DNA of 64,000 nucleotides from Acidimicrobiia bacterium (GCA_965231815.1 OZ246890.1:1799469-1863468); one strand, 5' to 3'. Shown: positions 1,111 through 22,988, counted from the stretch's first letter. Numbers and translations: made by a program. Notes: a model not told the origin generated them from the letters alone.

Positions 1111-1123
1111 GCGGTAGCGCCGA

Positions 1124-2886: not shown

Positions 2887-2933
2887 AGAGGCGGAGAACC
2901 TGTGCCCTACCGCAGGCTTGGTGGAAGAAACCA

Positions 2934-3944
2934 TTAGCCGGGCGCCTTCGGAGTGAGGAACGGCATCAAGTCACGGAGCCGGGCGCCGACCTGCTCGATC
3001 TCATGGCTTCGTTCCCGTGCTCTGGTGTCGAGAAGCCGCGGAGCGCCTGCGCGGGCCTCGGTCATCCAGTTGCGAGCGAAAGTTCCGGACCGGATATCCT
3101 CCAGAACGTCCTTCATGACCTTGCGCGTCTCATCGGTAATGATACGGGGACCGGTGGAATAGTCTCCCCATTCGGCGGTGTCGGACACCGAATAGCGCAT
3201 CCACGTCAAGCCGCCCTCGTAGAGGAGGTCAACGATCAACTTCAACTCGTGAAGGGTCTCGAAGTAGGCGGACTCGGGTTGGTACCCGCCCTCGACCAGC
3301 GTCTCGTAAGACGCTTTGATCAACTCGGACAGACCACCGCACAGGATGACCTGCTCCCCGAACAGGTCGGTTTCGGTTTCTTCTTTGAAGGTGGTCTCCA
3401 GCACTCCGGCTCTGGCGCCGCCTATCGCCCATGCGTAGGAGAGGCCGAGTTCATGGCAGGCGCCGGATGAGTCTTGATGCACGGCTAGCAGGCACGGTAC
3501 GCCGGAACCTTCCGTGTAGGTGCGGCGCACTAGGTGTCCCGGACCTTTCGGGGCGACCATCAGAACGTCGAGATCTTTGTCGGGGCTGATCTCACCGAAG
3601 TGGATGTTGAACCCGTGGGCAAACATCAGGGCGTCGCCGTTTTGGAGGTGGGGGGCGATCTCCGCGTGGTATAGGTCGGCGGCGTGCTGGTCAGGTACCA
3701 GGACCATGACTACGTTCGCCCATTCGGAAACCTCCGCTACCGAGGCGACCGCGAGACCTTCGCCCTCGGCTTCCAACCGTCGCCGGGACGTCTCTCTGAG
3801 GCCGACCTTGACCTCCACGCCGGACTCCCGGAGGTTGAGAGCATGCGCATGGCCTTGGCTTCCGTACCCGATTACGGCCACCCGGCGGCTTGATATTACG
3901 GCCGGATCCGCATCGTGGTCGTAGTAGATGGAAGCCATGCTCAC
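2934..3944 (-). CDS. ilvC: Ketol-acid reductoisomerase
   Basis: [17 protein letters not shown] Rossmann motif and IlvC body. Confidence 0.9.
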
Positions 3945-3996
3945 CTTTCCCTGGTAGTCGAGCGAATACGGACTATGGAAACCGACTCGGCGGGCG

Positions 3997-4500
3997 TCAT
4001 CCCACCGCTTTCAGTTTCCGGACTTTGGGTTCACGGCGGATCCCGATACGTCCTGACTTGACCAGTTCCATGATGCCGAACGGGCGTACCAGATCCAGGA
4101 AGTCGTTGAGTTTGGAGGGTTTGCCCGCCATCAGCAGCGTGATCGAGTTGACGGCCACATCGACCGGAGTGGCGTTGAAGATCGAGGCGAGATCTATCAC
4201 TTCCCCGCGGCGGCCGGGAGTGGCGTTGATCTTGACCAGCATGATCTCGCGCTCGATTGAGGTGGCGGGATCGAGTTCGGTTATCTTCACCACGTTGACC
4301 AGTTTGTGGAGTTGTTTCTTGACCTGTTCGAGTTCCGCGGCCATGACTACGATGGTCATCGTCGATAGGCCGGCATCAGCGGTCGGGCCGACTGCCAGGG
4401 AATGGATATTGAAACCCCTCCGTGCCAGCAGCGACGCGACCCGGGCGAGGACGCCGGGTTTATCCTCCACCAGCACGCTCAGCACCCGATGATCCCTCAT
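3997..4500 (-). CDS. ilvN: Acetolactate synthase small (regulatory) subunit
   Basis: ACT-domain N-terminus [16 protein letters not shown]; position between ilvB and ilvC. Confidence 0.85.
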
Positions 4501-6197
4501 AGGTCTTCAGGTCCCGTTAGCACGACGTCGTTGGATCCTCCGGCGGGCACCATCGGGAATACCATCTCATCGCGATCCACCTCGAACTCCACGACCACCG
4601 ATCGGTCTTCGATCTCGAGCATCCGCTTGATCGTGTCGTCGACATCCTCGGGACGGTCGGCCCGCAGCCCCACGCATCCCATAGCTTCAGCAAGCTTGAC
4701 GTAATCAGGGAGGTGTCTGCCTAGGTCGGAGGATGAGAACCGTTCGTTGTAGAACAGGCGTTGCCATTGTCTGACCATGCCATGGGCGCTGTTGTTGAAT
4801 ACGGCTACCTTGATGGGGATCTTCTCTACCGAGGCGGTGATCAGCTCCTGAACGGTCATCTGGAAACACCCGTCACCGTCCACGGCTATCACCTGTTTAT
4901 CAGGTCTACCGGCCTTGGCGCCGATGGCTGCCGGGACTGCGAAGCCCATAGTGCCCAGACCTCCGGAGTTGATCCAGTGCCGAGGTTTGTCGAATCCCCA
5001 GTACTGCGAAGCCCACATCTGATGCTGGCCGACCCCCGAGACTACGATGGAATCCTTGTCGGCCAGTTCCCGCAGGCGGGTAAGCACGAACTGAGGTTTG
5101 ATCGGACCGTCCGGTTCCTGCTCGAACCGGAGAGGATGCGTGTCCTGCCATTCCCGGATGGTTCGCCACCATTTCCGTAGCCTTGGCTTCGGGGTATCAC
5201 CCCAGCGCTCGCAGAATGCTTCCAGTATGCGGCCCGCATCTCCTACGATCGGTACCTCCGGAGTACGCACCTTGCCTATTTCGGCCGGGTCTACGTCCCC
5301 GTGAATCACCTTGGCGAAAGGGGCGAAGGAGTTCGGATCGCCCGTGACCCGATCGTCGAAACGAACCCCGACCGCCACCAGCACGTCCGACTTTTGTATC
5401 GCTGTCGTTGCCGCGTATAGCCCGTGCATGCCGGGCATCCCGAGCGTATTCGGATGGCTGTCGGGAATGGCGCCTCTTCCCATCAGGGTGGTCACGACGG
5501 GCATATTGGTCATTTCGGCGAAGGCCAGGAGAGCAGCCGACGCGTTGGCCTTGATGATCCCACCCCCCACGTACAGGACGGGTTGCTCAGCGCCCTGGAT
5601 CATCCGGACGGCTTCTGCGATCCGGCGCGGATGCGGGTTGACGGTGGGGCGGTAACCGGGCATGGATACCGGACCGGGATCGCTCCACTGCAGGGAGGCG
5701 TTCAGTATGTCCTTCGGTAGGTCGACCAGGACGGGTCCGGGCCGCCCTGTCGAGGCGACATGAAACGCTTCGGCCAAGACCTGTGGAATCTCGTCGGGAT
5801 CGGAGACGAAGTAGTTGTGTTTGGTGGCCGGCATGGTGATACCGGTGGTGTACGCCTCCTGGAAAGCGTCATTTCCCACTGCGTTGGTCGGAACCTGTCC
5901 GGTGATAGCCACCATAGGAACCGAGTCCATCAGCGCATCGGCGAGTGGAGTCACGAGGTTGGTGGCGCCCGGCCCCGACGTGGCGATCGTCACCCCGACT
6001 TTGCCCGTTGCCCAAGCATATCCCTCCGCCATGTGTCCGGCACCCTGTTCGTGACGGGCCAGGATATGGCGAAAACCGGCCTCCAGCATCGGATCGTAGG
6101 CGGGCAGGATGGCGCCGCCGGGAATACCGAACGCTACCTCGACATCCAGGTATTCCAGAGCCTTGATCAGTGCTCCTGCACCGGTGATTGTGCTCAT
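4497..6197 (-). CDS. ilvB: Acetolactate synthase large subunit (TPP-dependent)
   Basis: 566-aa TPP enzyme with typical ALS N-terminus; 4-bp overlap with ilvN start. Confidence 0.9.
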   Translation of the reverse strand: MSTITGAGALIKALEYLDVEVAFGIPGGAILPAYDPMLEAGFRHILARHEQGAGHMAEGYAWATGKVGVTIATSGPGATNLVTPLADALMDSVPMVAITGQVPTNAVGNDAFQEAYTTGITMPATKHNYFVSDPDEIPQVLAEAFHVASTGRPGPVLVDLPKDILNASLQWSDPGPVSMPGYRPTVNPHPRRIAEAVRMIQGAEQPVLYVGGGIIKANASAALLAFAEMTNMPVVTTLMGRGAIPDSHPNTLGMPGMHGLYAATTAIQKSDVLVAVGVRFDDRVTGDPNSFAPFAKVIHGDVDPAEIGKVRTPEVPIVGDAGRILEAFCERWGDTPKPRLRKWWRTIREWQDTHPLRFEQEPDGPIKPQFVLTRLRELADKDSIVVSGVGQHQMWASQYWGFDKPRHWINSGGLGTMGFAVPAAIGAKAGRPDKQVIAVDGDGCFQMTVQELITASVEKIPIKVAVFNNSAHGMVRQWQRLFYNERFSSSDLGRHLPDYVKLAEAMGCVGLRADRPEDVDDTIKRMLEIEDRSVVVEFEVDRDEMVFPMVPAGGSNDVVLTGPEDL

Positions 6198-6248
6198 GGC
6201 AAGTTCCTTACGTGCTGGTTGCTGTGATCGGGACCTGGTTCGTCCTAG

Positions 6249-6341
6249 AAAAAAGCCCTCCGGTATGGAGGGCTTCTAGCGCACATGCCGCGGAGCGACG
6301 GTGCGCTACATAAGTACTAGAACGTGGCGGCCAACAGTCAT
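6249..6341 (-). promoter_or_regulatory. Candidate ilvB leader-peptide attenuator: 11-codon Val/Leu-rich leader ORF (6306-6341) plus GC hairpin and U6 terminator (6249-6273)
   Basis: On the minus strand, ATG ACT GTT GGC CGC CAC GTT CTA GTA CTT ATG TAG (MTVGRHVLVLM) is followed by GCCCTCC-ATACC-GGAGGGC and TTTTTT, ~50 nt upstream of the ilvB ATG. Confidence 0.45.
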
Positions 6342-6529
6342 GATTGGCGCGATTATGGAGGAAATGAGCCGAAATGTCAACCTGCTCGATTCCGTCAATG
6401 ACCAGCCGGGACGGCCATTCGGTCCGCTGCCGCCCTTAGAACGGGATCCCGACCCTGGGTCGGCTACGGGAATCTGCACAGCTTGGGCCGGTGTAGAACC
6501 ATCGAGCAGGATCGCTTTACGATAAGGCA

Positions 6530-7756
6530 ATGCAAACATGCAGGCGCGAAGACCTGACCCGAGTGGTCGACCTCGCGAGAAAGGTTCTGGCCGATCTGGA
6601 TCCCGACCAGGTTCCCGGCCGCCTGGCCGGAATTGTCGCACAAACCAGACCTGCGCTAGTGATACCGATGCAAAATCGATTGATTAACGAGGTTGACGGT
6701 AACGAGTGGCTTCGCAGGCGGATCGCAGAGGAGTTCGACGGGGGGGTAGATGCGGAAGACCCGCTGGAAAGAGCGGCATATCTGTTTCTCCACCGGCCCG
6801 ATGGTTGGTCGGATGACCTACGAGAGATATCCCAACGTTCACAGCTGGCGGAGCAAGCCACCCGCATCGAAGAGATGGCCAATTGCATCAACGACCTGAA
6901 GACGGAGCTGGAAGATTGGCGGAACCAAGCCAAGCGCAACCGGAAGCTGGCTAACGAGGCGGCTGCCGAGGCTGAGGCCAATCGTCGGGTGGCGGCCGCC
7001 CGGGCCGAAGCTCTCCGGCGTCAGGATGAGGGAAGTATCACGGCGCTGCGACGGGATAATAGGGTTCTCCGGGGAGACCTGGAAGCGTCGAGAACCGAGC
7101 AACTCGCGCTACGAGGTCGTCTGGATGAGGTCCGGGCTGAGCTTCAGCGAGAACGGCGAGCACCGCGATTGATCGATCGTCCGGCGGCGCCCAGTGCATG
7201 GGCGAGTTTGGATCTCGTCGACTCTGCGCGCTTCCTCGACGATATGGTGGAATCGTTTTCACCGGAGTCGTCCTTTAGCGAAACGACCGGGTCTGTTGAA
7301 GAACCGCTCGATCTCCCATCGGGGGTCTCCCCCGATGACCGCTCTGCGATCGAATGGCTGCTGACCATCGAACGTGATTTCGTGCTGCTGGTGGACGGCT
7401 ACAACGTAGGCTATCACCTGGATAACTCACGGTTCAGCTCACCTGATATCCGCCGACGGCTGGAGAACGACATAGCCAGGTTCAAGAACCTCGCGCGGGG
7501 AAGGCCCCGGGTGGTTCTCGTTTATGACTCCGATCAGACCGGTGTGACGACGCGCGATCCCGGGCCGTCAGGTATCGAGATTCGGTTTACACATACCGGC
7601 CATAGCGCCGACGACGAGATCCTGGCGGAGGCTGCGGACCTGGGTACGGCTGCGGTGGTGGTCTCGACCGATCGTCGGGTGCGGGAGGGTGCGGAGGAGT
7701 TCGGTTCTCTCGGGTTATGGAGTGAGTCCATGGCCGAGTGGATCCGCAACTCCTGA
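6530..7756 (+). CDS. NYN/YacP-like PIN-fold nuclease-domain protein with central coiled coil
   Basis: C-terminal LLVDGYNVG ... VVLVYD ... ADDEILAEA ... VVVSTDRRVRE matches the YacP/NYN pattern; Arg/Glu-rich coiled-coil middle. Confidence 0.6.
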   Translation: MQTCRREDLTRVVDLARKVLADLDPDQVPGRLAGIVAQTRPALVIPMQNRLINEVDGNEWLRRRIAEEFDGGVDAEDPLERAAYLFLHRPDGWSDDLREISQRSQLAEQATRIEEMANCINDLKTELEDWRNQAKRNRKLANEAAAEAEANRRVAAARAEALRRQDEGSITALRRDNRVLRGDLEASRTEQLALRGRLDEVRAELQRERRAPRLIDRPAAPSAWASLDLVDSARFLDDMVESFSPESSFSETTGSVEEPLDLPSGVSPDDRSAIEWLLTIERDFVLLVDGYNVGYHLDNSRFSSPDIRRRLENDIARFKNLARGRPRVVLVYDSDQTGVTTRDPGPSGIEIRFTHTGHSADDEILAEAADLGTAAVVVSTDRRVREGAEEFGSLGLWSESMAEWIRNS

Positions 7757-7820
7757 ACGTCAGGACCCATTCCGGGTCACCAGGGCATATTCGGGTAGAC
7801 GGGTAACGTCAGAGTGACTC

Positions 7821-8042
7821 TTACCCCCTAAAATACCGGTCTAGAAGGTTGACGAGCAACGTGATGACAACGCTCACAATCACCATTGATGTGATGGGAA
7901 CGAATACCGCCGACCGCTCTCCGACCCGGCGGATATCACCCGGAAGGTTGCCGAACCACGACAGCAAACCGAATCGGGTCGCCAAACCGACCAGAATAGC
8001 CACCGCGCCCGCCAGGATAAGTAGGTTGCTCAGTTGCCTCAA
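7821..8042 (-). CDS. Small membrane protein, DUF2905-like
   Basis: 73 aa, two TM helices flanking an LPGDIRR motif. Confidence 0.5.
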   Translation of the reverse strand: MRQLSNLLILAGAVAILVGLATRFGLLSWFGNLPGDIRRVGERSAVFVPITSMVIVSVVITLLVNLLDRYFRG

Positions 8043-8058
8043 TGGATCCCCCTGATGT

Positions 8059-9741
8059 TCAGCCGTCTGTCACGCATCCCAAGCTGGCTGATGACACGGT
8101 TCGGACGTACTTGGCGAGGGTTCCTCTCGTAGCCTTCGACGGGGGCGCCGTCCAGGCTGATCGCCTTCCGGCGAGTTCGGCGTCCGGTACGTGGAGGGTG
8201 ATGGTGCGGGCTGTGGCGTCGATCGAGATCCGGTCGCCCTGCTCTACCAGTGCCAGCGGGCCACCTTCCTGAGCTTCGGGGCTCACATGTCCCATGATGA
8301 ATCCATGGGACCCGCCGGAGAACCGGCCATCCGTGATCAGGGCGACGTCTTGGCCCAGTCCGGCGCCCATGATGGCCGAGGTGGGGGTGAGCATCTCCGG
8401 CATTCCCGGACCACCTTTGGGGCCCTCGTAGCGGATCAGGATCACTGAGCCGGGGGTGATCTCGCCCCGCTCGAGTGCTTCCAGCATGTCCTCCTCGCTG
8501 TCGTAGGGCAGGGCGACGCCGCTGAAGGACAGACCTTCCTTGCCGGTGATCTTGGCTACGGCGCCCTCGGGGGCGAGGTTCCCGCGGAGTATCTGGATGT
8601 GCCCTGAATCCTTGATCGGGCTATCCCAATCGGCGACCACCTGCTGACCCTCGGAGAGTGCAGGTAGGTCGGAAAGATTCTCGCGCAAGGTCCGTCCGGT
8701 GACGGTCATGCAGTCACCGTCAATGGCGCCCCGCTCCAGGAGCATGCGGAGCACCGCAGGCGTACCTCCCACCGTGTGAAGATCGGCCATTACATACTTC
8801 CCGGAGGGCTTGAGGTCGGCCAGGTAGGGAGTGCGGTCGCTGACAGCTTGGAAGTCCTCGATGTGTAGCTCCACACCGGCGGAGTGCGCCATGGCAATCA
8901 GGTGCAGGACCGCATTGGTGGAGCCGCCTAGGACCATGGTGACCGTCATGGCGTTCTCGAAAGCGGCTCGGGTCATGATGTCGCTCGGCTTGATGTCCTC
9001 CTCCATTAGCCGCCGCACCGCCGCTCCGGCCGCCAGACATTCGGCTGCCTTGCCGTCATCGAGCGCAGGCGTGGAGGAACTGTAGGGAAGGGACATGCCC
9101 AGTGTCTCGATCGCTACCGCCATCGTGTTGGCGGTGTACATCCCTCCGCAAGCGCCGGCCCCCGGGCACGCATTGCGGACGATATCGAGGCGGTCCGCCT
9201 CGTCTAGTCGTCCGGCGATGTATTCACCGTACGACTGGAAGGCCGAAACTATGTCGATCGGATTACCGTGACGGTCGGTTCCGGGCTGAATGGTTCCACC
9301 GTAGATCATCACCGACGGCCGGTTCAATCGGGACATCGCCATCACCGCTCCGGGCATGTTCTTGTCACAGCCCGGAATGGAGATGTTGGCGTCATACCAC
9401 TGGGCGCTCATTACCGTCTCGATCGAATCCGCGATCAGATCCCGTGACTGGAGCGAGTAGGACATGCCTTCGGTCCCCATCGACATGCCATCGGAGACCC
9501 CGATGGTATTGAAGCGCATGCCTACCAGCCCGGCCCGGGTAACCCCTTCCTTGACCAGGGAAGCCAGATGGTCGAGGTGCATGTTGCAGCTGTTCCCCTC
9601 GTACCACATGGAAGCGATTCCCACCTGGGCTTTGGACATGTCCTCCGTGGTGAGGCCGGATGCGTAAAGCATCGCTTGGGATCCGCCCTGCGATCTTTCC
9701 TGAGTTATACGTCTGCTGATGAGGTTGATGGGTTGTGGCAT
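8059..9741 (-). CDS. ilvD: Dihydroxy-acid dehydratase
   Basis: IlvD/EDD family N-terminus and full-length body. Confidence 0.9.
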
Positions 9742-9754
9742 GCTCCGATCTTAG

Positions 9755-9962
9755 CCCCGATTATTCATGGATGGAGGTTTGGGGGATGAGTGGAGTAGAA
9801 CCATATTCGCACCCTGACCAGGCAATACAGCTATCGGAGTTCCCCATTCGGGTCCGGTGTAGAGATTCACCTGTCGGGTGAACGGCGGGTTTCTCCTGAT
9901 ACTCGGGTTGAACAGGCGCTACATGCCTCGGTGTGTGGGAAACCTGAATAATCAGGGCTAGA
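9755..9962 (+). repeat. Interspersed repeat family B copy B1
   Basis: CCCCGATTATTCATGGATGGAGG ... GGTGTGTGGGAAACCTGAATAATCAGGGCTAG; near-identical copies at 43626 and 44975 and a reverse copy at 54099. Confidence 0.7.
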
Positions 9963-10250
9963 GCGTGCGGGGAATGGTCGGGACTGTCGCCCCGACCGTG
10001 TCGAGTAACGGCTCGGGAGAGTCTTCGGGCGGGCCGGAGTTCCCGACGGGTTACTCTGCTGGGGATGTGTACCGCACACCTGGATCGTTTTCGCTACTCC
10101 TGCCGGGGTTGTGGATGCGTGCCTATATGGTGACGTCGGTGAGAGCCGGATTCCTCCTTCAGCCCGACGTTCCTCATCCCTCATCGATCCGTCTGAAGTC
10201 TGTAGTGCCCGGGGCTAGCCTTTCCTCTGACCTTTGAGCTTTGTGAGATT

Positions 10251-13200
10251 GTGAAGGGAATGCGTGTGGTCGATATTCCCAAGTGCCCAAGATGTGACCA
10301 CGAGATGGTCTTGCGTACGGCGCGGAAAGGCGCGAGGGCCGGGAGCCGGTTTTGGGGGTGTAGCACTTTCCCGCGGTGCAGAGGAACGCGGAAGTATATC
10401 GGCAATGGTCGCGCGCATCCCCGGCGTGGTGTGAAGGTTGGGGTCGCTGGTCCGACCTCAACCTCAGATCAATCTCGCGAGACGTTCGTCCGGCGTTGCG
10501 GTTCGGGGTGTCCTGTACATGTGGCTTCCGAGGGGTTGGCTAATTCGCTGCGGAAGGCTCGTGTGGATTGGTCAGACGGCACCACATCGACCTATCGGAA
10601 GCTGGGGTGGAGCGCTGAGTACGCGACGGCGGGGGCTTCTCTACGATCGATAGGCCTCAACGGTGTGGCTGCCTTGTCCAACTGCTGGTTGGCGAGCGAC
10701 CGCGCCGGTAGTCTTCCGGATGAGGACTCTCTGCGCGTGCTGGGCGTGATGGGGAAACTCTTGCGCCGTGGCGTTGCGCCACCTCTACATCCTGAATCCG
10801 AACGGACATTGCTTAGTTCTGTCGGGCTAGACGATCTTCTCATATCCGGCCCCCTGCCGGGCGACGTGTCTCCCACACTCCGATCCGCGCACCGTGTGGA
10901 TCGAGCGGCATTCGACGCCATTCAAGGAGACCAGGTTGAGGTAGAGCGCGGCTTGGTCGAGTCTGCGGATGAGGAACGTCTGGTCAGTTGGATGATTGAG
11001 CATCACGCGTGGGCGGCACGCTGGCTGGTGCCGCAGGCCTCGTTCGACCGTTTACTACAGGCGGGAGGACATAGGAAAACGGGAAACCGTAGGTGCGACT
11101 TCCTCTGGGCGCCGCCCGGTGTTTCTCCAGTAGTGATCGAGGTAGACGGCGCTCAGCACGAACAGCAAGTGTTGGCTGATACAGAGAGGGACCGGCTCCT
11201 GCGGTCGATTGGTATTCGTACGATTCGTGTTCCTACTAGCGAGCTTCAGGATGGACACGGCCATGCCCTTGATCGGGTGTCGACCGTGGTTTCCCGTATC
11301 GGAGGACCAGCCACTAGACGGTATATGCCCGCCTCGGACACCGATGTGCGTCTGGTTTGGGGCGCGATCCAGGTCCATCGTTTCGTTCTGGGTTTGTGCG
11401 AGTCGCTACGACGGGGATTCCTACGCGGAGATACTTGGGTCGTCGAGGTCGAGGATCCCACGGGTACGGCTGTGGATCTGGTCGCCCCTTACTTGGAGAC
11501 TCTTTACGCGCTTGATCGCCTCTGGGCTACCAGTTCGGTAGCGCCTGAGCGGGTCCTGCTCACTACGCCCACCGGACCGATCCTCTTGCAGCGCACATCC
11601 GAGGGTCGATATGAACGTACAACGGTCGGGACGGAGGATCGGGCGAGAAGGCCGCAGGTGCGGATGCTTCTCCAATGCGACCTCACCTCTTGCCAGCCGA
11701 TTCCTGACGCAGATGTCACACCGACGGTTGTGCTCAGATCCACCGGTGTGCCCTTTCTGATGTCCGACCCGGGGACAGTCGCTACTAGGCGAGATCGTGT
11801 CAGCCTGGAGGGCGAAGGGGTGCGGGACGCCATGACGGCTCTCCTCCGGGCAGTGTTCGCCAAGCGCGACTTCCGTGAAGGACAGTACGAAGCGATCTGC
11901 GAGGTGATGGCGGGAAGGGACTGCGCCGTGCTTCTTCCGACCGGTGCCGGCAAGAGCCTCGTCTACCAGTTCGCCGGGCTGTTTCTTCCCGGCCGGTGTC
12001 TGGTGGTCGATCCCCTGGTAGCGCTCATCGAGGACCAAGTCGAAGGGCTACACCGCTACGGAATCGACCGTGTCGAGGGCATCACACACGACATAGTCAG
12101 CAGAGGTGACGCAAGTACAATAATGAAAGCGATCGCAGAAGCTGACGTGTACTTCATGCTGGTCGCGCCTGAACGTCTGCAGATACCGGACTTTCGCGAG
12201 ACGTTGCGGGAACTAGCGGCTGGGACACCGGTCAACCTAGCCGTTGTAGATGAAGCCCATTGCGTGTCCGAGTGGGGACATGACTATCGCCACTCGTATC
12301 TCAGCCTGGGCCGGGTCTTGCGTGTTTTGTGTGAGGACTCAGCCAAAGAGCCCCCACCGTTGCTTGCGCTCACGGGGACCGCCTCGCGGGCTGTGCTAAG
12401 AGATGTGCTGTTTCAGCTCGAGATTCGGCAGGTGTCGGACAACTCCATAGTACGACCTGAGACGTTCGACCGTCCTGAACTCAACTATCACGTAGTGTCC
12501 ATCGACGTCAACTACCGTATGCCTCGGCTTCGTAGTGAATTACGGAGGCTACCGGCTCTCTTCGGGGAGCCTAGGTCCGCGTTCTTCGAGCCGGCGGGCA
12601 AGAACACCTTCCCCGGTCTGGTCTTTGTACCGACCGTCAACGGCTTCCCTTCACTCGAGAAGATCACCAAACTGACGGAAGAGGTCATTCCCTCGGTCAG
12701 GATGTTCTCGGGTAAGGTGCCGCGGGGTTTCAATCAGACGCGGTATAAGTCCGAGAAGCGGAGGAATGCCCGTCTATTCATGAACAACTCATCTGTAGCA
12801 CTCGTGTCCACGAAAGCCTTCGGTATGGGCATCGACAAACCGGACATTCGCTGGGTGGTGCACCACATGCTTCCCGGTTCTATCGAGTCCTACTACCAGG
12901 AGGTCGGACGAGCCGGCCGTAATGGAGACCCGGCGCATTGTGTGTTGATGATTAGCGAGTACGACCCGAGTCGTAACCGACAACTGCTGGCCGAGGACCG
13001 CTCTTTGGAGTCTGCACGTGAACGGCACGGCCGCATTCGGCGGTCTGAGCGTGACGATGTGACCACTGCCCTGTTTTTCCATCTATCCAATTTCGCAGGG
13101 ATAGACACCGAAGTGTCCGTTCTCGTGGAGGTAGCGGCTGCGCTAGCGCCCGGGGCGGAACGCCGAAATATCGAGCTACCTTTCAAAGGGGATCGATCAA

Positions 13201-14102
13201 AGCGGGAACGAGCCCTTCACCGTCTCTCGATTCTGGGTGTGGTGAGCGACTATCTCGTCAGATTCAGAGCAGAGACCTTTGTAGTAACCGTTGCCGGAGT
13301 TAGGCCCGACACGGTCGGCGAAGCGTTGGAAGAGTTCGTCAGGCGTAGCCAGCCTGGACTGTTGACTGAGATCAAAGACCGCGTCGGACGGCACGACGAC
13401 CTCATGACTGCAATCGAGGGCTGTGGGCGTGAACTGATCAAGTTCGTATACCGCACCGTCGAGCAAACACGCCGCCGCTCCCTCAGAGAGATGTGGCTAG
13501 CCGCACACGCCGCCGCGCGGAGCAACAATCCCAACCGAGAGCTCCGCCGTCGAATACTCGACTACATGACCGAAGGTGATGTCACCCCTGTCATGCTCCG
13601 CCTGGCGGAAGAGTCCCATTTCAGGTTTTCCGACTGGGTATCGGCGTGGGAATCAATGGAGGGCGACTCAGACGCCCGGGAGTGGCGAGCCGCGGCAGCC
13701 CGTCTGCTCGGCTCCTACCCAACTCATCCCGGCCTGCTGGTGTCGCGGGCCCTACCCGAAGTTCTGTTGGACGACGGTGACCCGAATGAGTTCGAGTCGA
13801 ACCTGCGAGAAGCGTTTCAGTCGGCCAAGAGTGAGTATCAGGCAGACGAAGCAGACACTGTCGGCGCCGTCCGCCTGATTCTCGAACGCGTAATGGAGGA
13901 GCGCCCACTCTGGGGATCTGCCGTGGCCGGCGCGGCTTACTACGCCGGAGTGTCCGACGCAGACGATACCGACTCGTCGGCAACGACCCACACCTCGCGT
14001 GAGAGTTGGCCGATCGCGGCCTTCACTCTCGCCGAAGGCGTTGAGGTTGCTATCTCACTTACACGGGCAGTCCTGGACATCTATAGAGAGGACCGACAGT
14101 GA
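10251..14102 (+). CDS. Multidomain protein: topoisomerase-type C4 zinc finger + DUF559 (Vsr-like PD-(D/E)xK endonuclease) + RecQ-family SF2 helicase + unassigned C-terminal region
   Basis: N-terminal CPRCDHEM ... CSTFPRC; central PVVIEVDGAQHE ... DRLLRSIGIRTIRV (DUF559); helicase motifs LLPTGAGKSL, VVDEAHCVSEWGHDYR, VSTKAFGMGIDKPDIRWVVHHMLPGSIESYYQEVGRAGRNG; GTG start. Confidence 0.8.
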   Translation: MKGMRVVDIPKCPRCDHEMVLRTARKGARAGSRFWGCSTFPRCRGTRKYIGNGRAHPRRGVKVGVAGPTSTSDQSRETFVRRCGSGCPVHVASEGLANSLRKARVDWSDGTTSTYRKLGWSAEYATAGASLRSIGLNGVAALSNCWLASDRAGSLPDEDSLRVLGVMGKLLRRGVAPPLHPESERTLLSSVGLDDLLISGPLPGDVSPTLRSAHRVDRAAFDAIQGDQVEVERGLVESADEERLVSWMIEHHAWAARWLVPQASFDRLLQAGGHRKTGNRRCDFLWAPPGVSPVVIEVDGAQHEQQVLADTERDRLLRSIGIRTIRVPTSELQDGHGHALDRVSTVVSRIGGPATRRYMPASDTDVRLVWGAIQVHRFVLGLCESLRRGFLRGDTWVVEVEDPTGTAVDLVAPYLETLYALDRLWATSSVAPERVLLTTPTGPILLQRTSEGRYERTTVGTEDRARRPQVRMLLQCDLTSCQPIPDADVTPTVVLRSTGVPFLMSDPGTVATRRDRVSLEGEGVRDAMTALLRAVFAKRDFREGQYEAICEVMAGRDCAVLLPTGAGKSLVYQFAGLFLPGRCLVVDPLVALIEDQVEGLHRYGIDRVEGITHDIVSRGDASTIMKAIAEADVYFMLVAPERLQIPDFRETLRELAAGTPVNLAVVDEAHCVSEWGHDYRHSYLSLGRVLRVLCEDSAKEPPPLLALTGTASRAVLRDVLFQLEIRQVSDNSIVRPETFDRPELNYHVVSIDVNYRMPRLRSELRRLPALFGEPRSAFFEPAGKNTFPGLVFVPTVNGFPSLEKITKLTEEVIPSVRMFSGKVPRGFNQTRYKSEKRRNARLFMNNSSVALVSTKAFGMGIDKPDIRWVVHHMLPGSIESYYQEVGRAGRNGDPAHCVLMISEYDPSRNRQLLAEDRSLESARERHGRIRRSERDDVTTALFFHLSNFAGIDTEVSVLVEVAAALAPGAERRNIELPFKGDRSKRERALHRLSILGVVSDYLVRFRAETFVVTVAGVRPDTVGEALEEFVRRSQPGLLTEIKDRVGRHDDLMTAIEGCGRELIKFVYRTVEQTRRRSLREMWLAAHAAARSNNPNRELRRRILDYMTEGDVTPVMLRLAEESHFRFSDWVSAWESMEGDSDAREWRAAAARLLGSYPTHPGLLVSRALPEVLLDDGDPNEFESNLREAFQSAKSEYQADEADTVGAVRLILERVMEERPLWGSAVAGAAYYAGVSDADDTDSSATTHTSRESWPIAAFTLAEGVEVAISLTRAVLDIYREDRQ

Positions 14103-14674
14103 CCGATGGCAACATTGTCGAATTCGAAACCGTACACCGCCGCTTCGGGGAGGCCGTCGAAGCTCTCAAGCAGCTGTCCGAGCTGATGGGTGGGCTACGC
14201 CAGGCCGAAAAGGTGAAAGCGCGAACCGCGGCGACTATGTCCGACGCCTCCGATCGCCTTCGAGAAACGTCCGCAACCCTAGCGTCGTATTGCGAACTCT
14301 TGCGCTCGGCGTTGGCTTCAACGATTCAAGCCCTGCAGTCCGCCGAGAATCTAGCGACCGGGGCTGAGCTATCAGCGATCCGAACCGAGGTGGCCTCCAA
14401 TAAGGCAGCCCTTGCGCACCTAGTCGAGGCCGAAGATTCTCGCAACGTCAAGCTTGCCGACTTGGCTAACCGACAGAACACGATCGCCGACACAGTCGAG
14501 ACAATCCAGAATAGGATCGACGGAGCTCTCTCTCAGGCGCAACAATCTCGAGACAATGCCCTCTCCGAACTCACGGAAACCAAGAACCGACTCGAGATAC
14601 TCGAAATCCGCCTCAGCGGACTACCGCCCAAAATCCGCCGCAAGTACGACCTAGACAACCTTTCACCCTCCTAA
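14099..14674 (+). CDS. Coiled-coil protein, translationally coupled to the upstream helicase gene
   Basis: GTG start overlaps the upstream TGA (GTGA); 191 aa, heptad-like Ala/Leu/Glu/Arg-rich sequence, no catalytic motif recognised. Confidence 0.6.
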   Translation: MTDGNIVEFETVHRRFGEAVEALKQLSELMGGLRQAEKVKARTAATMSDASDRLRETSATLASYCELLRSALASTIQALQSAENLATGAELSAIRTEVASNKAALAHLVEAEDSRNVKLADLANRQNTIADTVETIQNRIDGALSQAQQSRDNALSELTETKNRLEILEIRLSGLPPKIRRKYDLDNLSPS

Positions 14675-14678
14675 CCCG

Positions 14679-15437
14679 ATGCTGATCGTCAGCGACGTTC
14701 ATGCCGCCTTCGCCGAGTTGGCCGCGGTGGCAGGCCTGGGAGAGCCGCTGCTGGTTTTGGGTGATCTGCTCAACTTCGTCGACTACCGCACCGGCGCCGG
14801 CATTGTTGGCGACGTATACGGGCGCGATCATGTGACGGAGTTCATCCGGAATCGCAAGAAAGGTGATTGGGATGCAAACCGACGCTTGTGGCGGAGGACG
14901 ACCGCCGGAAGGTCCGCGGAACTAGCGGCTCGAACCCGTGAGAGGGTGCTCGAGCAGTACGCAGCCGCTCGGCGTGCGCTGGACGGCGCCGACGCCTACG
15001 TAACGTTCGGGAACGTGGACTGGCCTGACGAGATGAGGGCGTGCTTGTCGAACGTCGCCCGGATAGTCGACGGTGAGGTGGTCGAGATCGAGGGTTACTC
15101 GGTGGGTTTTGCGGGCGGCGGGGTACCGACACCCGCCAACGCGCGGGGAGAGGTGTCACACGAGGCAATGGCCGAAAAGTTGGAGGGACTGGGTGCGGTC
15201 GACATACTCTGTACCCACGTAGCCCCTTCGATTGCTCCCTTGCAGCGAGACGTCATCACCGGTGTTCTGGAGCGATCGTCAACGGCGGTACTGGAGTACC
15301 TGCTCGCCTACCAACCGTCTTTCCACTACTTCGGAGACGTACACCAACCACAGGCGAACATGTGGAGGGTGGGCAGGACGCTATGCCGCAACGTGGGGTA
15401 TTTCCGCGCCACCGCCCGTCCGGTACGCCACGGCTAG
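14679..15437 (+). CDS. Calcineurin-like metallophosphoesterase
   Basis: DVH, GDLLN, GNVD, CTHVAP and GDVH metal-binding motifs; starts 5 nt after the previous stop. Confidence 0.75.
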   Translation: MLIVSDVHAAFAELAAVAGLGEPLLVLGDLLNFVDYRTGAGIVGDVYGRDHVTEFIRNRKKGDWDANRRLWRRTTAGRSAELAARTRERVLEQYAAARRALDGADAYVTFGNVDWPDEMRACLSNVARIVDGEVVEIEGYSVGFAGGGVPTPANARGEVSHEAMAEKLEGLGAVDILCTHVAPSIAPLQRDVITGVLERSSTAVLEYLLAYQPSFHYFGDVHQPQANMWRVGRTLCRNVGYFRATARPVRHG

Positions 15438-15763
15438 CCGCAGCCGCAGCCACCCCCGCCGCCGGCCGGGTTCTGGTTTATCACGCTGAATCCTTCACCC
15501 TGAGCGGTCTGGACGAAGTCGATTTCCACGCCGCGGACCGTTTCCCGAGCGGTGTTGGCCACGGCTACCTTGACGCCGTGGGCCTCTTCCACCTCGTAGG
15601 CGTCGTCGACCTCGGGCAGGAAGGCCAGACCGTAGACGGTTCGGCAGCATCCCTGGCCGGCCGGATAGACGTGCAGGTAAGAGCGGTCGACTTCCCCATC
15701 GGCAATCTCCAATACTTTCTCGGCTGCGGTAGAAGACAACGCCACCAGCGCTCCGTTACCCAT
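15434..15763 (-). CDS. erpA: Fe-S cluster insertion protein (HesB/IscA/ErpA family)
   Basis: LSSTAAEKVLEI ... GQGCCRTVYGLAF ... C-terminal GCGCG; start taken at MGNGAL. Confidence 0.8.
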   Translation of the reverse strand: MGNGALVALSSTAAEKVLEIADGEVDRSYLHVYPAGQGCCRTVYGLAFLPEVDDAYEVEEAHGVKVAVANTARETVRGVEIDFVQTAQGEGFSVINQNPAGGGGGCGCG

Positions 15764-15826
15764 TTCTAATCCCTTCCTTGGCGGTCTCGACGATCCTAGG
15801 ATATCTAAGCCGCCCATATTGACCCC

Positions 15827-16258
15827 GTGGCCTTACAGCCCATGTACTTCGAGCCCCGACAGATACTGAACTCCCAAGGCTATGCCGACCCTCCCGGTCC
15901 CGATAAGGGGGTTCTTCGCACCAGGTACATCGCCTTGGTGGAGGCCCGTCTTTACGATCGCAATGCTTCTGCCTTACAGCGCCAAGGGAGGCTGGCAACC
16001 TACGCACCATACGAGGGCCAGGAAGCGATCCAGATCGGAGCGGTAGCGCAGCTCCAGCCCGCGTGGCACCCCGATCATTCCTACGGTACGTCCGCCATCC
16101 TGTCGGTGGGGCGTTCCCATCCGAGACCGGTCGTAAGGGACGGTGCGGTTGCGATCGCTCACCAGTTTCCTCTGAGCCTTTCCTACGACCACCGCATAAT
16201 CGACGGAGCCGAGGGGCGCCGGTTCATGGCAGCGGTCACCGATGCATTGGAGAGCTAG
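15827..16258 (+). pseudogene. Deletion scar of a 2-oxoacid (branched-chain keto-acid/pyruvate) dehydrogenase operon: E1-alpha N-terminal fragment fused in frame to the E2 C-terminal ~50 aa
   Basis: ARLYDRNASALQRQGRLATYAPYEGQEAIQIGA (E1-alpha TPP region) followed by AILSVGRSHPRPVVRDGAVAIAHQFPLSLSYDHRIIDGAEGRRFM (E2 catalytic C-terminus) in a 143-aa ORF. Confidence 0.6.
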
Positions 16259-16260
16259 GA

Positions 16261-16372
16261 GGGTCCTGAAAAACGAATCTTACGGGGTTCGGCGGTTGGC
16301 AAACTGCCTGGTCATGGAGTTGTGGGTTAGCGGCCGAACCCCTTTGTGCGGGGTTTCTCAGCACCCTCCTAG
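16261..16372 (-). repeat. Interspersed repeat family A copy A2 (reverse orientation)
   Basis: Reverse complement matches A3/A4 almost exactly. Confidence 0.75.
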
Positions 16373-16439
16373 TTCCTCCGGTTGAGCGGTACCTCTTCGG
16401 AGGGCTCGAGGACGTTCCCGGATATCTATCCTTGCCGAC

Positions 16440-17477
16440 GTGAAGGTAGGGGTACGCAGATCAAGCAATGCCGGACGTAGGCCGAAGGATCCGTGGGCTC
16501 GGTTCAAAGCAGGGGTCGGTCTGCTGGCGCTGGTGCTGGCAGTGGGCACGGGCGGGTACATGGCGCTCGGACTCGGACTGCTCGATGCCCTCTACCAGAC
16601 GGTAATCACCATCTCGACGGTAGGTTATAGGGAGATAGGGGAGGTCGCGGAGCGGTACAAGGTGTTCACCGTCCTCCTGATCCTATTCGGTACCGGTACC
16701 AGTTTGTATACGTTAGGGGTGCTGATCGAGACCATGTTCGAAGGACGATTGGATAACCAGTTTCGGACACGCCGAATGCAGCGCAAGATCGATCGGCTGA
16801 GCGGCCATGTGGTCCTGTGTGGTTACGGTCAGGTGGGCAGGGCCATCGAGGGCGAGTTGCTCGACGCCGGGGAGGCCGTGGTGGCGGTGGATTCTCGTGA
16901 GCCCGAGTATCAGCAGTTTCCCGAAGACCACCGGATGGTCTTGGGAGACGCCACCGAGGACTCGATCCTCCTCCAAGCCGGCCTTGATCGCGCCAAGGTC
17001 TTGGTGGTGGCCCTGAACTCCGATGTCGATAACCTATTCATAACTCTTACCGCGCGGGCCATCAACCCGGAACTCTTCATAGTTGCCCGGGCCAATGAAT
17101 CGCTCACGCACCCGAAGCTGAGGAGAGCAGGCGCCGATCGAGTGGTTAATCCGCACCAGATCGGGGGTACGCGTATGGCGGCCCTCGTTTCCCATCCCGA
17201 GGTGGCGGAGTTTCTCGATGTGGTCATGCAGGATGGTGAATTCAAGGTACGGCTTGCTGAAGTTCCGATCACCGACGATTCACCGTTGGCTAATCGTTCG
17301 CTCGCGGAATGCAGGATCCGCACCAAGACCGGCGCTTCGGTGTTGTCGGTGCAGAGAGAGCAGAGTTATTTGACCAATCCAGACGGATCATTCGTTTTCG
17401 CGCCGGGGGACCTGCTTATTTCGTTGGGAACGGATGCGCAGTTGATCGCTCTTCGCGCTCAGGCGCGTGCAACTTGA
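16440..17477 (+). CDS. Potassium-channel family protein with RCK/TrkA-N and TrkA-C domains (MthK-like), non-canonical filter
   Basis: Pore helix and filter TISTVGYRE (canonical TVGYGD); Rossmann VVLCGYGQVGR. Confidence 0.8.
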   Translation: MKVGVRRSSNAGRRPKDPWARFKAGVGLLALVLAVGTGGYMALGLGLLDALYQTVITISTVGYREIGEVAERYKVFTVLLILFGTGTSLYTLGVLIETMFEGRLDNQFRTRRMQRKIDRLSGHVVLCGYGQVGRAIEGELLDAGEAVVAVDSREPEYQQFPEDHRMVLGDATEDSILLQAGLDRAKVLVVALNSDVDNLFITLTARAINPELFIVARANESLTHPKLRRAGADRVVNPHQIGGTRMAALVSHPEVAEFLDVVMQDGEFKVRLAEVPITDDSPLANRSLAECRIRTKTGASVLSVQREQSYLTNPDGSFVFAPGDLLISLGTDAQLIALRAQARAT

Positions 17478-18220: not shown

Positions 18221-18293
18221 GCCGGGGTAGCTCAGTCGGCAGAGCGGCTCATTCGTAATGAGCAGGTCAGGGGTTCGATTCCCCTCTCCGGCT
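18221..18293 (+). tRNA. tRNA-Thr (anticodon CGT)
   Basis: Cloverleaf folded by hand: acceptor GCCGGGG/CTCCGGC, anticodon stem GCTCA/TGAGC, loop TTCGTAA, T-arm AGGGG-TTCGATT-CCCCT. Confidence 0.9.
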
Positions 18294-18389
18294 CCGTACT
18301 ACTTCGGATTCGTCGTGATCTCGCGCCGTTTATCGTATGAATCGGCGGGGTATCAGAAGGGTGGGTGCAGTCGACCATGGCGCAGGACG

Positions 18390-19215: not shown

Positions 19216-20157
19216 TTGATGAACCGGGTGGTTACCGCCCTTCGCGCCGGGATACGATCATCAACCACCGGGCTGTTCAGCCATGTCCCCTATCCGTTGC
19301 AAAATACCTTGGAGTACCAGGGAGATCACGGGGTGTGCGGTCCAGATTCGGCGTCGTGGCCGATCATCGGTGATGTTGCTGCGTTCATCGGCGGGATCCG
19401 TGCCTTGCTCGTGCAAAGCGCCCATCCTGAAGTGGTAGCCGGAGTCGCGGATCATTCCAACTATCGAGTGGATCCGTTAGGTCGTCTGTCCCGGACGGCG
19501 GCGTACGTCACCGCCACCACCTTCGGCGCCCTGCCTGAAGTGTGTGAGGCTATCGATCGGGTCAAGGTCGCGCACGCCGGCGTGGCGGGCAGGTCACATC
19601 GTGGGCGACCGTACGCGGCGTCCGTTCCCGCCCTCTCCGCCTGGGTTCACAACGTGCTTACGGATTCGTTCCTGGCGGCGTACCAGGCCTACGGCCCTCA
19701 ACCCCTCGCGACGGGCCAGGCAGACCGCTTCGTTCGTGAACAGGCCGTGATCGGTAGAATGCTCGATTCCCTTCCCGTTCCGGAGGATGCTCCCTCATTG
19801 AGTGCATGGGTGGAGGACCATCCCGACCTAGGCTCATCGCCGGGGATGGCGGCAACCGTGGAGTTCTTGAGGAATCCTCCGCTCGATCCGGTCCAGAAGG
19901 TGGGATACCGACTTCTCTATACGGGAGCGGTCGCGATACTCCCGGACCGGATCCGGCGAATCCTCGGACGGAAAGATCTTCCCGGATCCGCAACCGCCGC
20001 CCTGGTCACGGTCAGGTTCCTGAGATGGGCGATGGGTTCATCTCCGTCATGGAGGCTGGCGCTCATCAGAACGGGAAGAGAGGTTCCACCGGGCCTGTTC
20101 CGCAGGTCGGTTCCTCCGGCGATCGGTCGGGATGCCCGATTTCAGGGAGTTCCATGA
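19216..20157 (+). CDS. MpaB/DUF2236-family oxygenase-like protein
   Basis: Pattern resembles DUF2236 (IGDVAAFIGGIRALLVQSAHPEV). Confidence 0.6.
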   Translation: MMNRVVTALRAGIRSSTTGLFSHVPYPLQNTLEYQGDHGVCGPDSASWPIIGDVAAFIGGIRALLVQSAHPEVVAGVADHSNYRVDPLGRLSRTAAYVTATTFGALPEVCEAIDRVKVAHAGVAGRSHRGRPYAASVPALSAWVHNVLTDSFLAAYQAYGPQPLATGQADRFVREQAVIGRMLDSLPVPEDAPSLSAWVEDHPDLGSSPGMAATVEFLRNPPLDPVQKVGYRLLYTGAVAILPDRIRRILGRKDLPGSATAALVTVRFLRWAMGSSPSWRLALIRTGREVPPGLFRRSVPPAIGRDARFQGVP

Positions 20158-21689: not shown

Positions 21690-22988
21690 GTAGATACCTG
21701 CCTGGGTGACCCGCACCTTCCGGTAATGGTGGCATTGAGCGGGGGCGCCGACAGTGCGGTGCTTGCATGGGCGATCCGGCAAACCGGTCGGCTAACCCGT
21801 GCCCTCCATGTGCATCACGGTTGGTCGGGGTCGGATCAGATGGAATCCGCCGCTCTCGGAGTGGCTTCCGAGCTCGGCCTCGAGGTCCAAACCGTGCGGG
21901 TTGACGCGACCGGTTCCGGTTCACCCGAGGACGAAGCCAGGCGAGTGCGCTACGAAGCCTTGCAAAGGGCGGTCGATGAGGGTGAGTTGATCGCCACGGG
22001 CCACACCCTCACCGACCAGGCCGAAACGGTGCTCGGCAACCTGATCTGGGGTACCGGTCTGGATGGGTTGAGAGGGATCCACCGGCGACGTAACAACCTG
22101 GTGCGTCCTCTCATCGGCGTTAGCAGAGCGGAAACCAGAGAGTTGGGATGCCTGCTGGGCCTTCCGTTCAGCGATGATCCGGCCAACCTCGATCATGCTT
22201 TCCGGCGGGTTCGGATACGGCAGGCGCTCGCGTCCTGGGAGAGGCGACTAACTCCCGGTATCACTGCGAGGCTTGCCGGCATGGCGAGCCTCGTCGAAGG
22301 GGACATCGAGTTGCTGGATCAACTGGCCGGCGAAGTCCGGATCGAACAACAGGCCGGCGCGGTACGCATTCCGGCCTCACTGCTCCGGACCCTCCCGCCT
22401 GCGCTGGCGGCGCGGGTGGTACGGCGGGCGCTCCGGATCCTGACCGCTGGATATCCGGGCTCCGGAAGTGACGTGGGGGCGGTGATGAGGACGGCTCGGG
22501 AGGGAATACCCGGCTGGGTCAGCGGCGCCAATCGGGTCACCCGGTCCGGCTCCTACGTGCAGATCGGCGGATCCCCGGCAGAGGATGACCGAGAGAGGGC
22601 TTGGGACATGACCGGCCCGGTTCGATGGGGAGAATGGACATGGGAGGCCAGGGAGATACCGCACCGTCCCGATGTTTTCCCGCTCTCGTCTTGGCGCCAG
22701 GTCTTCGACGGGAATCTGTTCATCGACGCCCAACCGGTGATCCGAAGAATCCTGCCCGATGACCGCTTGGCCATGAGCAGAGGTCACAAACGAGCCCTGA
22801 AGGCCCTAGCGGAGGTCGGCATACCTGTGGAGGACCGGTCGATCTGGCCCGTCCTGGAGGTGGATGGGCGCGTATTGTGGATTCCCGGAGTGCGAAGAGC
22901 CTACACAGGGTGGGTCACTTCCGATACCATGCGCTATGTTCTCATCTCAGCCATGCGGGAGACAAGGTGGAGGCCGGTCGGGTACTGA
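21690..22988 (+). CDS. tilS: tRNA(Ile)-lysidine synthetase
   Basis: PP-loop VALSGGADSAVLAW; upstream of hpt and ftsH; start approximate. Confidence 0.8.
   Translation, partial: VDTCLGDPHLPVMVALSGGADSAVLAWAIRQTGRLTRALHVHHGWSGSDQMESAALGVASELGLEVQTVRVDATGSGSPEDEARRVRYEALQRAVDEGELIATGHTLTDQAETVLGNLIWGTGLDGLRGIHRRRNNLVRPLIGVSRAETRELGCLLGLPFSDDPANLDHAFRRVRIRQALASWERRLTPGITARLAGMASLVEGDIELLDQLAGEVRIEQQAGAVRIPASLLRTLPPALAARVVRRALRILTAGYPGSGSDVGAVMRTAREGIPGWVSGANRVTRSGSYVQIGGSPAEDDRERAWDMTGPVRWGEWTWEAREIPHRPDVFPLSSWRQVFDGNLFIDAQPVIRRILPDDRLAMSRGHKRALKALAEVGIPVEDRSIWPVLEVDGRVLWIPGVRRAYTGWVTSDTMRYVLISAMRETRWRPVGY

Follow-up and report, generated by a model that had tools for sequence, protein, structure and literature searches.

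The segment between ilvD and a K+ channel gene (9742-16440) in a 64,000-nucleotide (nt) stretch of DNA from an Acidimicrobiia bacterium, referred to here at its full length as the window (G+C content (GC) approximately 61%), raises the question of whether a set of unusual-looking genes enclosed by two repeats was acquired as a single unit. The original prediction took the whole 6.7 kb, from a left-hand repeat (B1) to a right-hand repeat (A2), to be one imported island with the repeats as its ends. Comparison with related genomes showed that the segment was not imported as a single island with repeats at its ends. It is probably a mosaic of four unrelated events, namely insertion of a two-gene cassette, insertions of miniature inverted-repeat transposable elements (MITEs), a deletion and a break in synteny, this degree of confidence applying to the explanation overall including the function proposed for the cassette. 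The cassette (10192-14674), encoding a nuclease-helicase and a small coiled-coil partner, appears to be the only foreign part of the segment, such that horizontal acquisition holds for the cassette and fails for 9742-16440 as a whole.

The syntenic set comprised the window, L083 (4.02 Mb, circular) and L111, which are collinear with nucleotide identities of 92% between the window and L083, 92% between the window and L111 and 97% between L083 and L111. These were compared with the cassette-free relatives L088 and L089/L090, with Ca. Spongiisocius (L091; 3.38 Mb, circular) and with the non-syntenic cassette loci L081, L082, L084, L085 and L087. Synteny was drawn from loci of helicase and metallophosphoesterase homologues, a scan of GTDB with ilvD being of no use for this purpose with all the matches listed at 74% identity or less and from other phyla. 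The exact ilvD product of the window had no entry on record.

The limits of the cassette are given by its copies elsewhere. L081 and L082 show homology only over 10192-14670 (87.6% identity in L081, 84.6% in L082), with sharp borders, beginning at TCTGAAGTCTG, 68 nt before the ATG of the helicase gene, and ending at the stop codon of the partner gene. This stop codon is shifted in the window and L083 (14671-14678 vs. L083 14413-14443), adding three residues (SPS) compared to L081 and L082, and the window has lost 25 nt between the partner stop and the start of the metallophosphoesterase gene leaving only 4 nt. From the other side, the window aligns with cassette-free L088 up to 9754 and then again from 14676, with 265 nt lying between these points in L088 and 4.9 kb in the window, and as such the inserted material amounts to B1 plus at most 9961-14675.

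The cassette is horizontally mobile. It was found in seven different close contexts, every non-syntenic one of which differs, and only the helicase and partner genes travel together across them, reducing the three-gene module originally proposed to a pair. In L081 (helicase identity 86%) the cassette comes directly after RosmerTA and is followed by a PLD nuclease, and CARF, phosphoribosyltransferase (PRTase), HigB and TacAT genes are nearby, which together constitute a defence island. In L082 (82%) the cassette separates glycine-cleavage and amidase genes from a PhdYeFM gene, while L087 (63%), L084 (57%) and L085 (45%) have metabolic-gene surroundings. The cassettes of L084 and L087 have a GC of 0.58-0.60 (up to 0.61) within flanks of 0.67-0.70. 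The helicase family is rare, with approximately 55 full-length relatives recovered by a word search, and the N-terminal 530 residues matching 373 clusters at E ≤ 1e-10 among 1.84 billion representatives. More distant relatives are found in plasmid or insertion sequence (IS)-rich contexts, being borne on a Rhodothermus marinus plasmid and on Klebsiella IncF plasmids.

In contrast to the pair, the third gene of the proposed module, which encodes a 252-aa protein, is native, an ancestral neighbor of ilvD that is not part of the cassette. In L088 and L089/L090 the gene order is leuB, leuA, ilvC, ilvN, ilvB, a NYN-domain gene, a small gene, ilvD, the metallophosphoesterase gene and a UvrD/HRDC helicase gene, with a spacer of 265-270 nt between ilvD and the metallophosphoesterase gene and orthologue identities of 84% (L088) and 79% (L089/L090). 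The protein has more than 1400 homologues in Acidimicrobiia and Ca. Spongiisocius with identity declining smoothly from 94% to below 60%, which carry the names metallophosphoesterase or Icc-related. Its own match to Pfam Metallophos was sub-threshold (14.7 bits, cutoff 21.5; E = 0.043), several close homologues have a precomputed PF00149 match, and the motifs DVH, GD, GNVD, THV and GDVH are readable. The cassette was inserted directly before the start codon of this gene, which gives the three genes the look of a single operon.

To the left of the cassette, the 231-nt spacer (9961-10191) is kept in L083 and L111, and nothing homologous to it accompanies the cassette copies of other genomes. It could not be aligned with the intergenic regions of L088 and L089, which are of similar length (265-270 nt), and it is probably what remains of the native ilvD/metallophosphoesterase intergenic region. 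The RNA structure predicted for the 297 nt that precede the helicase gene was no better than that of shuffled sequence (z = 0.42), while an Rfam search of the window returned a tRNA-Thr alone, with neither the repeats nor the spacer matching an RNA family, and a scan for promoters and terminators gave a background level.

A second discontinuity is an older break in synteny just after the metallophosphoesterase gene (15437/15434). Past this point, L088 (9930-12572), L089 and L091 have UvrD/HRDC helicase, polyketide-cyclase-like, HSP20 and ROK genes, the UvrD/HRDC gene being absent from the 64-kb window, while in the window, L083 and L111 the metallophosphoesterase gene is followed by a convergent iscA gene, a dehydrogenase operon (a remnant in the window) and the K+ channel gene. 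These latter genes are a block that is conserved in the relatives. Gene order, proposed as a check on acquisition, gave a mixed answer, being the same in the two closest relatives and different in more distant ones. The idea of an insertion hotspot gained some support. In L091 the orthologous metallophosphoesterase gene is immediately preceded by a different mobile island (452-8724) with genes for a tyrosine integrase, IS110, AbiEii, PDDEXK_3 and HNH and no tRNA nearby, and this suggests that the 5′ side of the gene is a recurrent insertion site.

Both repeat families are MITEs, being short, non-coding and multi-copy with inverted-repeat ends and TA duplications. The repeat placed at 9755-9962 is indeed present, as a 205-nt family B element with TA at 9752-9753 and 9959-9960, as is that placed at 16261-16372, which is a 112-nt family A element with TA at 16256-16257 and 16370-16371, so the target-site duplications looked for next to B1 and A2 were present on both sides of each. 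Family B has further copies in the window at 43625-43831, 44975-45180 and, inverted, 54100-54314, and family A at approximately 2772-2881, 31128-31239 and 43136-43243, giving eight MITEs in 64 kb, four of each family, with more copies in L083 and L111. The matches within both families are far beyond chance, the family B copies being 67-96% identical block by block over approximately 210 nt and three of the four family A copies sharing 92-95% identity. The terminal inverted repeats are GCCCCGATTATTCA / TGAATAATCAGGGC in family B, GGAGGGTGCTGAGAAA / TTTCTCAGCACCCTCC in family A and GGAGGGTCCTGA / TCAGCACCCTCC in copy A2. TA was found on both sides of seven of the eight copies, and filled and empty sites differ by a simple TA duplication, the empty site CCGT-TA-GGTCG in the window being filled in L083. 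In size, lack of coding capacity, inverted repeats, TA duplication and insertion polymorphism, both families resemble the TA-duplicating MITEs derived from IS630/Tc1-mariner elements, an assignment to transposase family that is drawn from the TA duplication alone. No autonomous parent transposon with matching ends is visible in the 64-kb window.

The presence and absence of individual copies gives their relative ages. B1, upstream of ilvD, is present in all three syntenic genomes; A1, between leuA and ilvC, is present in the window and L111 and absent from L083; and A2, which follows the E2 stop codon, is found in the window alone, having taken the TA of the stop codon TAG as its target. In addition, a family B copy opposite window 19476-19480 is found only in L083, and another opposite 20597/20598 is found in L083 and L111 and not in the window. 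B1 is therefore old and shared while A2 is recent and private to the window genome. Being members of different families with different insertion times, B1 and A2 cannot mark the opposite ends of a single acquired element, and with eight copies in 64 kb the occurrence of two within 6.7 kb is unremarkable. The other copies likewise come and go independently, and the proposal that the repeats are boundaries is abandoned.

Other copies of the same families lie in or near genes. In L083 a family B MITE (21985-22195) cuts an MpaB/Lcp-family oxygenase gene (L083 21736-22872) into open reading frames (ORFs) of 95 and 205 aa, the gene being whole in the window (19216-20157, 313 aa) and in L111 (309 aa), which marks this as a recent gene-disrupting insertion. 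A repeat-dense intergenic region of the window (42955-43888) has MITE A4 (43136-43243) beside MITE B2 (43625-43831), and MITE B3 (44973-45182 with flanks) lies inside the 5′ end of a called polyprenyl synthase ORF (43888-45189, minus strand), the true start of which is probably downstream of the MITE with the Pfam domain beginning only at residue 137. In the ilvD/metallophosphoesterase intergenic region of L089 (approximately 8800-8830), CTCAGCACCCTCCTA matches the family A terminus; this more distant relative may thus carry a piece of a MITE at the same intergenic site.

The remaining event is a deletion. The deletion-scar pseudogene reported just inside the right edge of the segment is real, the ORF at 15842-16258 joining residues 1-73 of a pyruvate/2-oxoacid dehydrogenase E1-alpha to residues 312-368 of the E2 acyltransferase. 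The corresponding stretch of L083 and L111, from iscA to the K+ channel gene, holds whole genes for E1-alpha (345 aa), E1-beta (324 aa) and E2 (369-371 aa). The deletion, which is private to the window genome, removed approximately 2702 nt and with them most of this three-gene 2-oxoacid dehydrogenase operon, and its junction (16061-16063) shows GCG microhomology. The 2702-nt deletion on its own would shift the frame; a second loss, of 1 nt, lies 18 nt downstream of the junction (TTCC vs. TTCCC in L083; region 16061-16082) and puts the E2 tail back in frame, such that the 139-codon chimeric ORF is still open. This frame-restoring loss may reflect chance or a more complex event.

The arrangement of the segment is given in Table 1. 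With these four events separated, acquisition of the whole stretch from B1 to A2 as one island bounded by its repeats becomes highly improbable. The repeats at both ends, the slightly low third-position GC (GC3) of the helicase gene and the pseudogene near one end had all pointed that way. Set against them are the different MITE family and age of B1 and A2, the native gene that sits beside ilvD in cassette-free relatives, the contiguous and intact iscA, dehydrogenase operon and K+ channel genes of relatives that lack A2, the ending of cassette homology at 10192 and 14670 and the lack of any notable excess of MITEs in the 6.7 kb. The border features of a classical genomic island are also missing, with no integrase within 9742-16440, the nearest tRNA gene (18221-18295) lying beyond the segment and neither a tRNA nor a direct-repeat attachment site at the borders.

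Table 1. Features of the segment between ilvD and the K+ channel gene, in window coordinates.
Feature	Position	Strand	Remarks
ilvD	8059-9741	-	
MITE family B copy B1	9752-9960 (element 9754-9958)	.	Repeat comparison, TA flanks
231-nt spacer	9961-10191	.	Conserved in L083 and L111
Cassette leader, 68 nt, conserved	10192-10259	+	Left homology border with copies elsewhere
1280-aa nuclease-helicase gene	10260-14102	+	Top1-type zinc ribbon, DUF559, DEAD, Helicase_C; alternative GTG start at 10251
191-aa coiled-coil partner gene	14099-14674	+	No Pfam family; gene end is the right cassette border
Metallophosphoesterase gene, 252 aa	14679-15437	+	Native, outside the cassette
IscA/HesB-type iron-sulfur assembly gene	15434-15763	-	Convergent with metallophosphoesterase gene, 4-nt overlap
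E1-alpha/E2 fusion pseudogene	15842-16258	+	Deletion scar
MITE family A copy A2	16256-16371 (element 16258-16369)	.	Repeat comparison, TA flanks
K+ channel gene, TrkA domain	16440-17477	+	

The cassette is mobile elsewhere, and in this lineage it is an old resident. Third-codon-position divergence between the window and L083 was 12.8% in the helicase gene and 10-17% in the ilv genes, and the divergence profile along the region was even, from which it follows that the three syntenic genomes received the cassette from their common ancestor. These comparisons place its insertion before the split from L083 and L111, and it has been vertically inherited since then, such that the acquisition is not recent. 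At codon positions 1 and 2, the helicase gene differs from that of L083 by 5.8% compared to 1-2% in its neighbors, and as such the helicase is evolving faster in protein than its neighbors yet remains under purifying selection. The partner gene differs from that of L083 by only 4.2% at third positions vs. 12.8% in the adjoining helicase gene; no recombination tract accounting for this low divergence was found along the region.

Codon usage agrees with an old and partly ameliorated import. The original prediction held that all three genes were richer in A/T-ending codons than core genes, which is borne out for the helicase gene (GC3 0.655) and weakly for the partner gene (0.668) and not for the metallophosphoesterase gene (0.741), the window mean being 0.712 (standard deviation 0.044) and the values for the core genes ilvD, ftsH and clpC being 0.769, 0.731 and 0.740, respectively. 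Length-corrected z-scores calculated against the codon usage of the window with a resampling null were +4.5 for the helicase gene, +2.4 for the partner gene and +0.1 for the metallophosphoesterase gene. The GC3 shift is small in absolute terms with several other window ORFs equally low or lower, and the strongest codon deviation in the window (z = +10, GC3 0.671) is that of a gene for a Bmp/PnrA-like ABC substrate-binding protein (47848-48966), which is native-looking and deviates more than the helicase gene. Separately, a cyanobacterial origin was considered because of GCGATCGC, which the original prediction had given as an example, and was rejected, with four such sites present in the 64 kb and the homologues being from Acidimicrobiia. 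Elsewhere in the window, a CarD transcription factor gene (57890-58774) encodes an N-terminal extension of approximately 125 aa, of AAKKA type and histone H1-like, that derives from 15-nt tandem repeats (57972-58226).

The larger cassette gene encodes a protein in which a Top1-type zinc ribbon (residues 8-48) and an alpha/beta domain of unknown type (residues ~92-250) are followed by a Vsr/DUF559-like nuclease (~255-350), a further unknown domain (~360-500), a RecQ-family helicase core (~525-930) and a C-terminal region (~930-1280) made up of a small winged-helix-like unit and an all-alpha TPR-like domain. The nuclease domain scored above the cutoff for Pfam DUF559 and has a Vsr-like fold with conserved acidic active-site residues, placing it with the Vsr/DUF559 PD-(D/E)xK nucleases. 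Among 51 homologues no variation is seen at its residues D280, E294, D296, D307, D311, R310 and R323 or in helicase motifs I-VI, and the enzyme is predicted to be active with both genes of the cassette intact. The helicase core passed the NCBIfam model for the RecQ subfamily (TIGR00614; 240 bits, cutoff 219.8) and did not pass that for the RecQ equivalog (TIGR01389; 264.6 bits, cutoff 640.2), and it matches the structures of E. coli RecQ (1oyw; E = 3e-52), BLM and WRN. In a structure model of residues 901-1280 (predicted local distance difference test score, pLDDT, 90.1) the winged-helix-like unit is followed by an all-alpha solenoid with generic TPR matches only. The protein has no RQC, HRDC or PRTase domain, residues 921-1280 match no Pfam family and there is no tetracysteine zinc site after the helicase.

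The partner gene starts within the helicase gene, overlapping its stop codon by 4 nt, and the pair is translationally coupled. A homologous coiled-coil ORF follows the helicase gene in all seven close contexts (27-96% identity), with conserved ends that read VEFETVxRRF at the N-terminus and LPxxIRRKYDLDxL at the C-terminus. Against Pfam, PADLOC and NCBIfam the partner gave only coiled-coil noise (DprA_N, E = 0.22), and the window protein has no transmembrane helix. A scan of JGI metagenomes with the family alignment returned mostly ordinary RecQ, with approximately 11 of 80 loci being family members. A coiled-coil ORF of 160-237 aa follows the helicase gene in nine of ten such distant members and on both plasmids, ending in a hydrophobic transmembrane-type helix; a hidden Markov model of the partner protein did not detect these ORFs, which were identified by position, composition and the C-terminal hydrophobic helix. 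The cassette is an intact, conserved and coupled gene pair that moves between genomes, combining a conserved nuclease site, a RecQ motor and an obligate coiled-coil partner.

Four known systems bear comparison with this pair. Canonical bacterial RecQ shares the helicase core with all of its motifs, and differs in that the cassette helicase lacks RQC and HRDC domains, is extended at the N-terminus by 525 aa that include a nuclease and is accompanied by an obligate small partner gene. A parallel in layout is PsyrTA/RqlHI, an anti-phage pair of helicase toxin and antitoxin, also a patchily distributed accessory locus and a two-gene operon in which a large RecQ-family helicase with an extra effector domain is followed by a smaller partner that is thought to restrain it. 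However, PsyrT/RqlH is approximately 690 aa in length with a tetracysteine zinc domain and a toxic C-terminal PRTase, and its partner is DprA-like, whereas the cassette has an N-terminal Vsr-like nuclease as effector, an all-alpha TPR-like C-terminus and a coiled-coil partner with no DprA homology. The PADLOC PsyrT model matched the helicase core at 230 bits, no better than ordinary RecQ (264 bits), and the cassette, with neither a PRTase nor a DprA-like partner, is not a member of PsyrTA/RqlHI.

The best PADLOC matches of the helicase were to models of DpdF, the helicase of the Dpd island for 7-deazaguanine DNA modification and restriction, at 299 bits over the helicase core, and one of these (PDLC02868) spans the nuclease, helicase and C-terminal region of a Klebsiella plasmid relative almost end to end. 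The NCBIfam DpdF equivalog, in contrast, scored 147 bits (cutoff 550), and no dpdA, dpdB, dpdC or other dpd genes were found nearby in any context examined, which sets the cassette apart from Dpd. Hachiman couples a PD-(D/E)xK-type nuclease (HamA) to a superfamily-2 helicase (HamB) that senses DNA state (PMC12278908). Its likeness to the cassette is one of logic only, with nuclease and helicase being separate proteins, the helicase not RecQ-like and no coiled-coil partner, and PADLOC found no match to HamA or HamB. By these comparisons the cassette is a putative helicase-nuclease conflict module, while the MITEs and the deletion are ordinary. A Klebsiella pneumoniae plasmid (NZ_CP058546.1, 144379-150466) has a three-gene locus between IS elements, encoding a ShosA/DprA-like protein, a 1558-aa protein with HAD, ShosT-like PRTase, DUF559 and RecQ domains, and a 162-aa coiled coil with a transmembrane tail. 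Other plasmids of Klebsiella, and plasmids of Raoultella and E. coli, carry similar loci, and the locus links ShosTA/PsyrTA-type parts to the nuclease-RecQ family.

From its domains, and from its neighbors in L081 and the ShosT/ShosA-like parts joined to its Klebsiella version, the cassette may be read as a two-component conflict system, acting in anti-phage or anti-plasmid defence or in a manner like that of a toxin-antitoxin pair. The 3′-5′ RecQ-type motor, perhaps with the zinc ribbon and winged-helix unit assisting, would load on DNA at the expense of ATP and would track 3′-5′ along the DNA to deliver the fused nuclease to its substrate, with the coiled-coil partner restraining, localizing or activating the nuclease-helicase. 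A speculative possibility, suggested by the conserved acidic C-terminus of the partner and the TPR-like domain of the helicase, is that the two dock as a peptide in a groove. The partner would be anchored in the membrane by its tail across most of the wider family, while in this Acidimicrobiia subclade it would be soluble.

A different reading of the pair is as an ancestral, vertically inherited DNA-repair module, not a conflict system, that was lost in L088, L089 and L091. The identical GC of cassette and host, the synonymous divergence equal to that of neighboring core genes, the shared position in three genomes and the several contexts among housekeeping genes would be in keeping with this, as would membership of the RecQ family, with non-canonical repair helicases of RecQ-like type, for example RqlH, being known in Actinobacteria (PMC3378886). 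It nevertheless seems quite unlikely, given a family that is rare and patchy where the adjoining native gene has more than 1400 homologues, non-syntenic contexts that all differ with abrupt borders at 85-88% DNA identity, the strong mismatch in GC between cassette and flanks in other hosts, relatives on plasmids and in a defence island, and a helicase protein that evolves faster than its neighbors (0.058 vs. 0.01-0.02). Likewise the pair might be a purely selfish addiction module, or the remnant of a larger degraded mobile element, which brings no benefit to the host and persists as a frozen accident. The tight coupling of the two genes with their stop/start overlap, the resemblance to the RecQ-like toxin logic of PsyrTA/RqlHI, the PhdYeFM antitoxin gene near the L082 copy and the toxin-antitoxin genes around the L081 copy all fit such a module. 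Intact genes with active sites kept invariant in more than 35 diverged homologues and through the divergence of three genomes argue instead for selection, although addiction would also maintain them, and no other mobile-element remnants flank the cassette, making this alternative an unlikely one.

A defence function for the pair is a possibility held at somewhat below an even chance. The more specific proposal is of an undescribed anti-phage or anti-plasmid system in which a zinc ribbon, Vsr-like nuclease, RecQ motor and TPR-like regulatory domain are restrained or positioned by the coiled-coil partner, and it is put forward tentatively. A literature search found no paper describing a DUF559-RecQ defence system. 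A number of observations weigh against the overall explanation. A clear defence island surrounds the cassette in only one of the seven close contexts (L081) with four lying among metabolic genes, in what is a small sample, and PADLOC matched no specific system model, its DpdF and PsyrT models responding only through their generic RecQ core. No full-length relative was present in a phage database or IMG/VR, where only generic RecQ cores were matched. The cassette carries no recombinase and no border repeats, its GC equals that of the host in the window lineage, and transfer between lineages is suggested by GC contrast and context rather than by phylogeny. With its long stability here and its host-like GC, the cassette may also have been domesticated to a housekeeping role.

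For the organism, the presence and absence of individual MITE copies shows directly that two MITE families were active in the recent past of an uncultured Acidimicrobiia lineage. The locus is also cautionary in that repeats flanking an odd-looking set of genes did not define an island, with comparison to three relatives resolving four events. The cassette itself is a delimited, conserved pair of an uncharacterized nuclease-RecQ family and a candidate defence or toxin-antitoxin system. If a defence function is correct, the family would represent a rare but widespread defence module in Actinomycetota, Rhodothermota and Pseudomonadota, being carried on plasmids in the last of these, and would be related in logic, not in parts, to PsyrTA and Hachiman.

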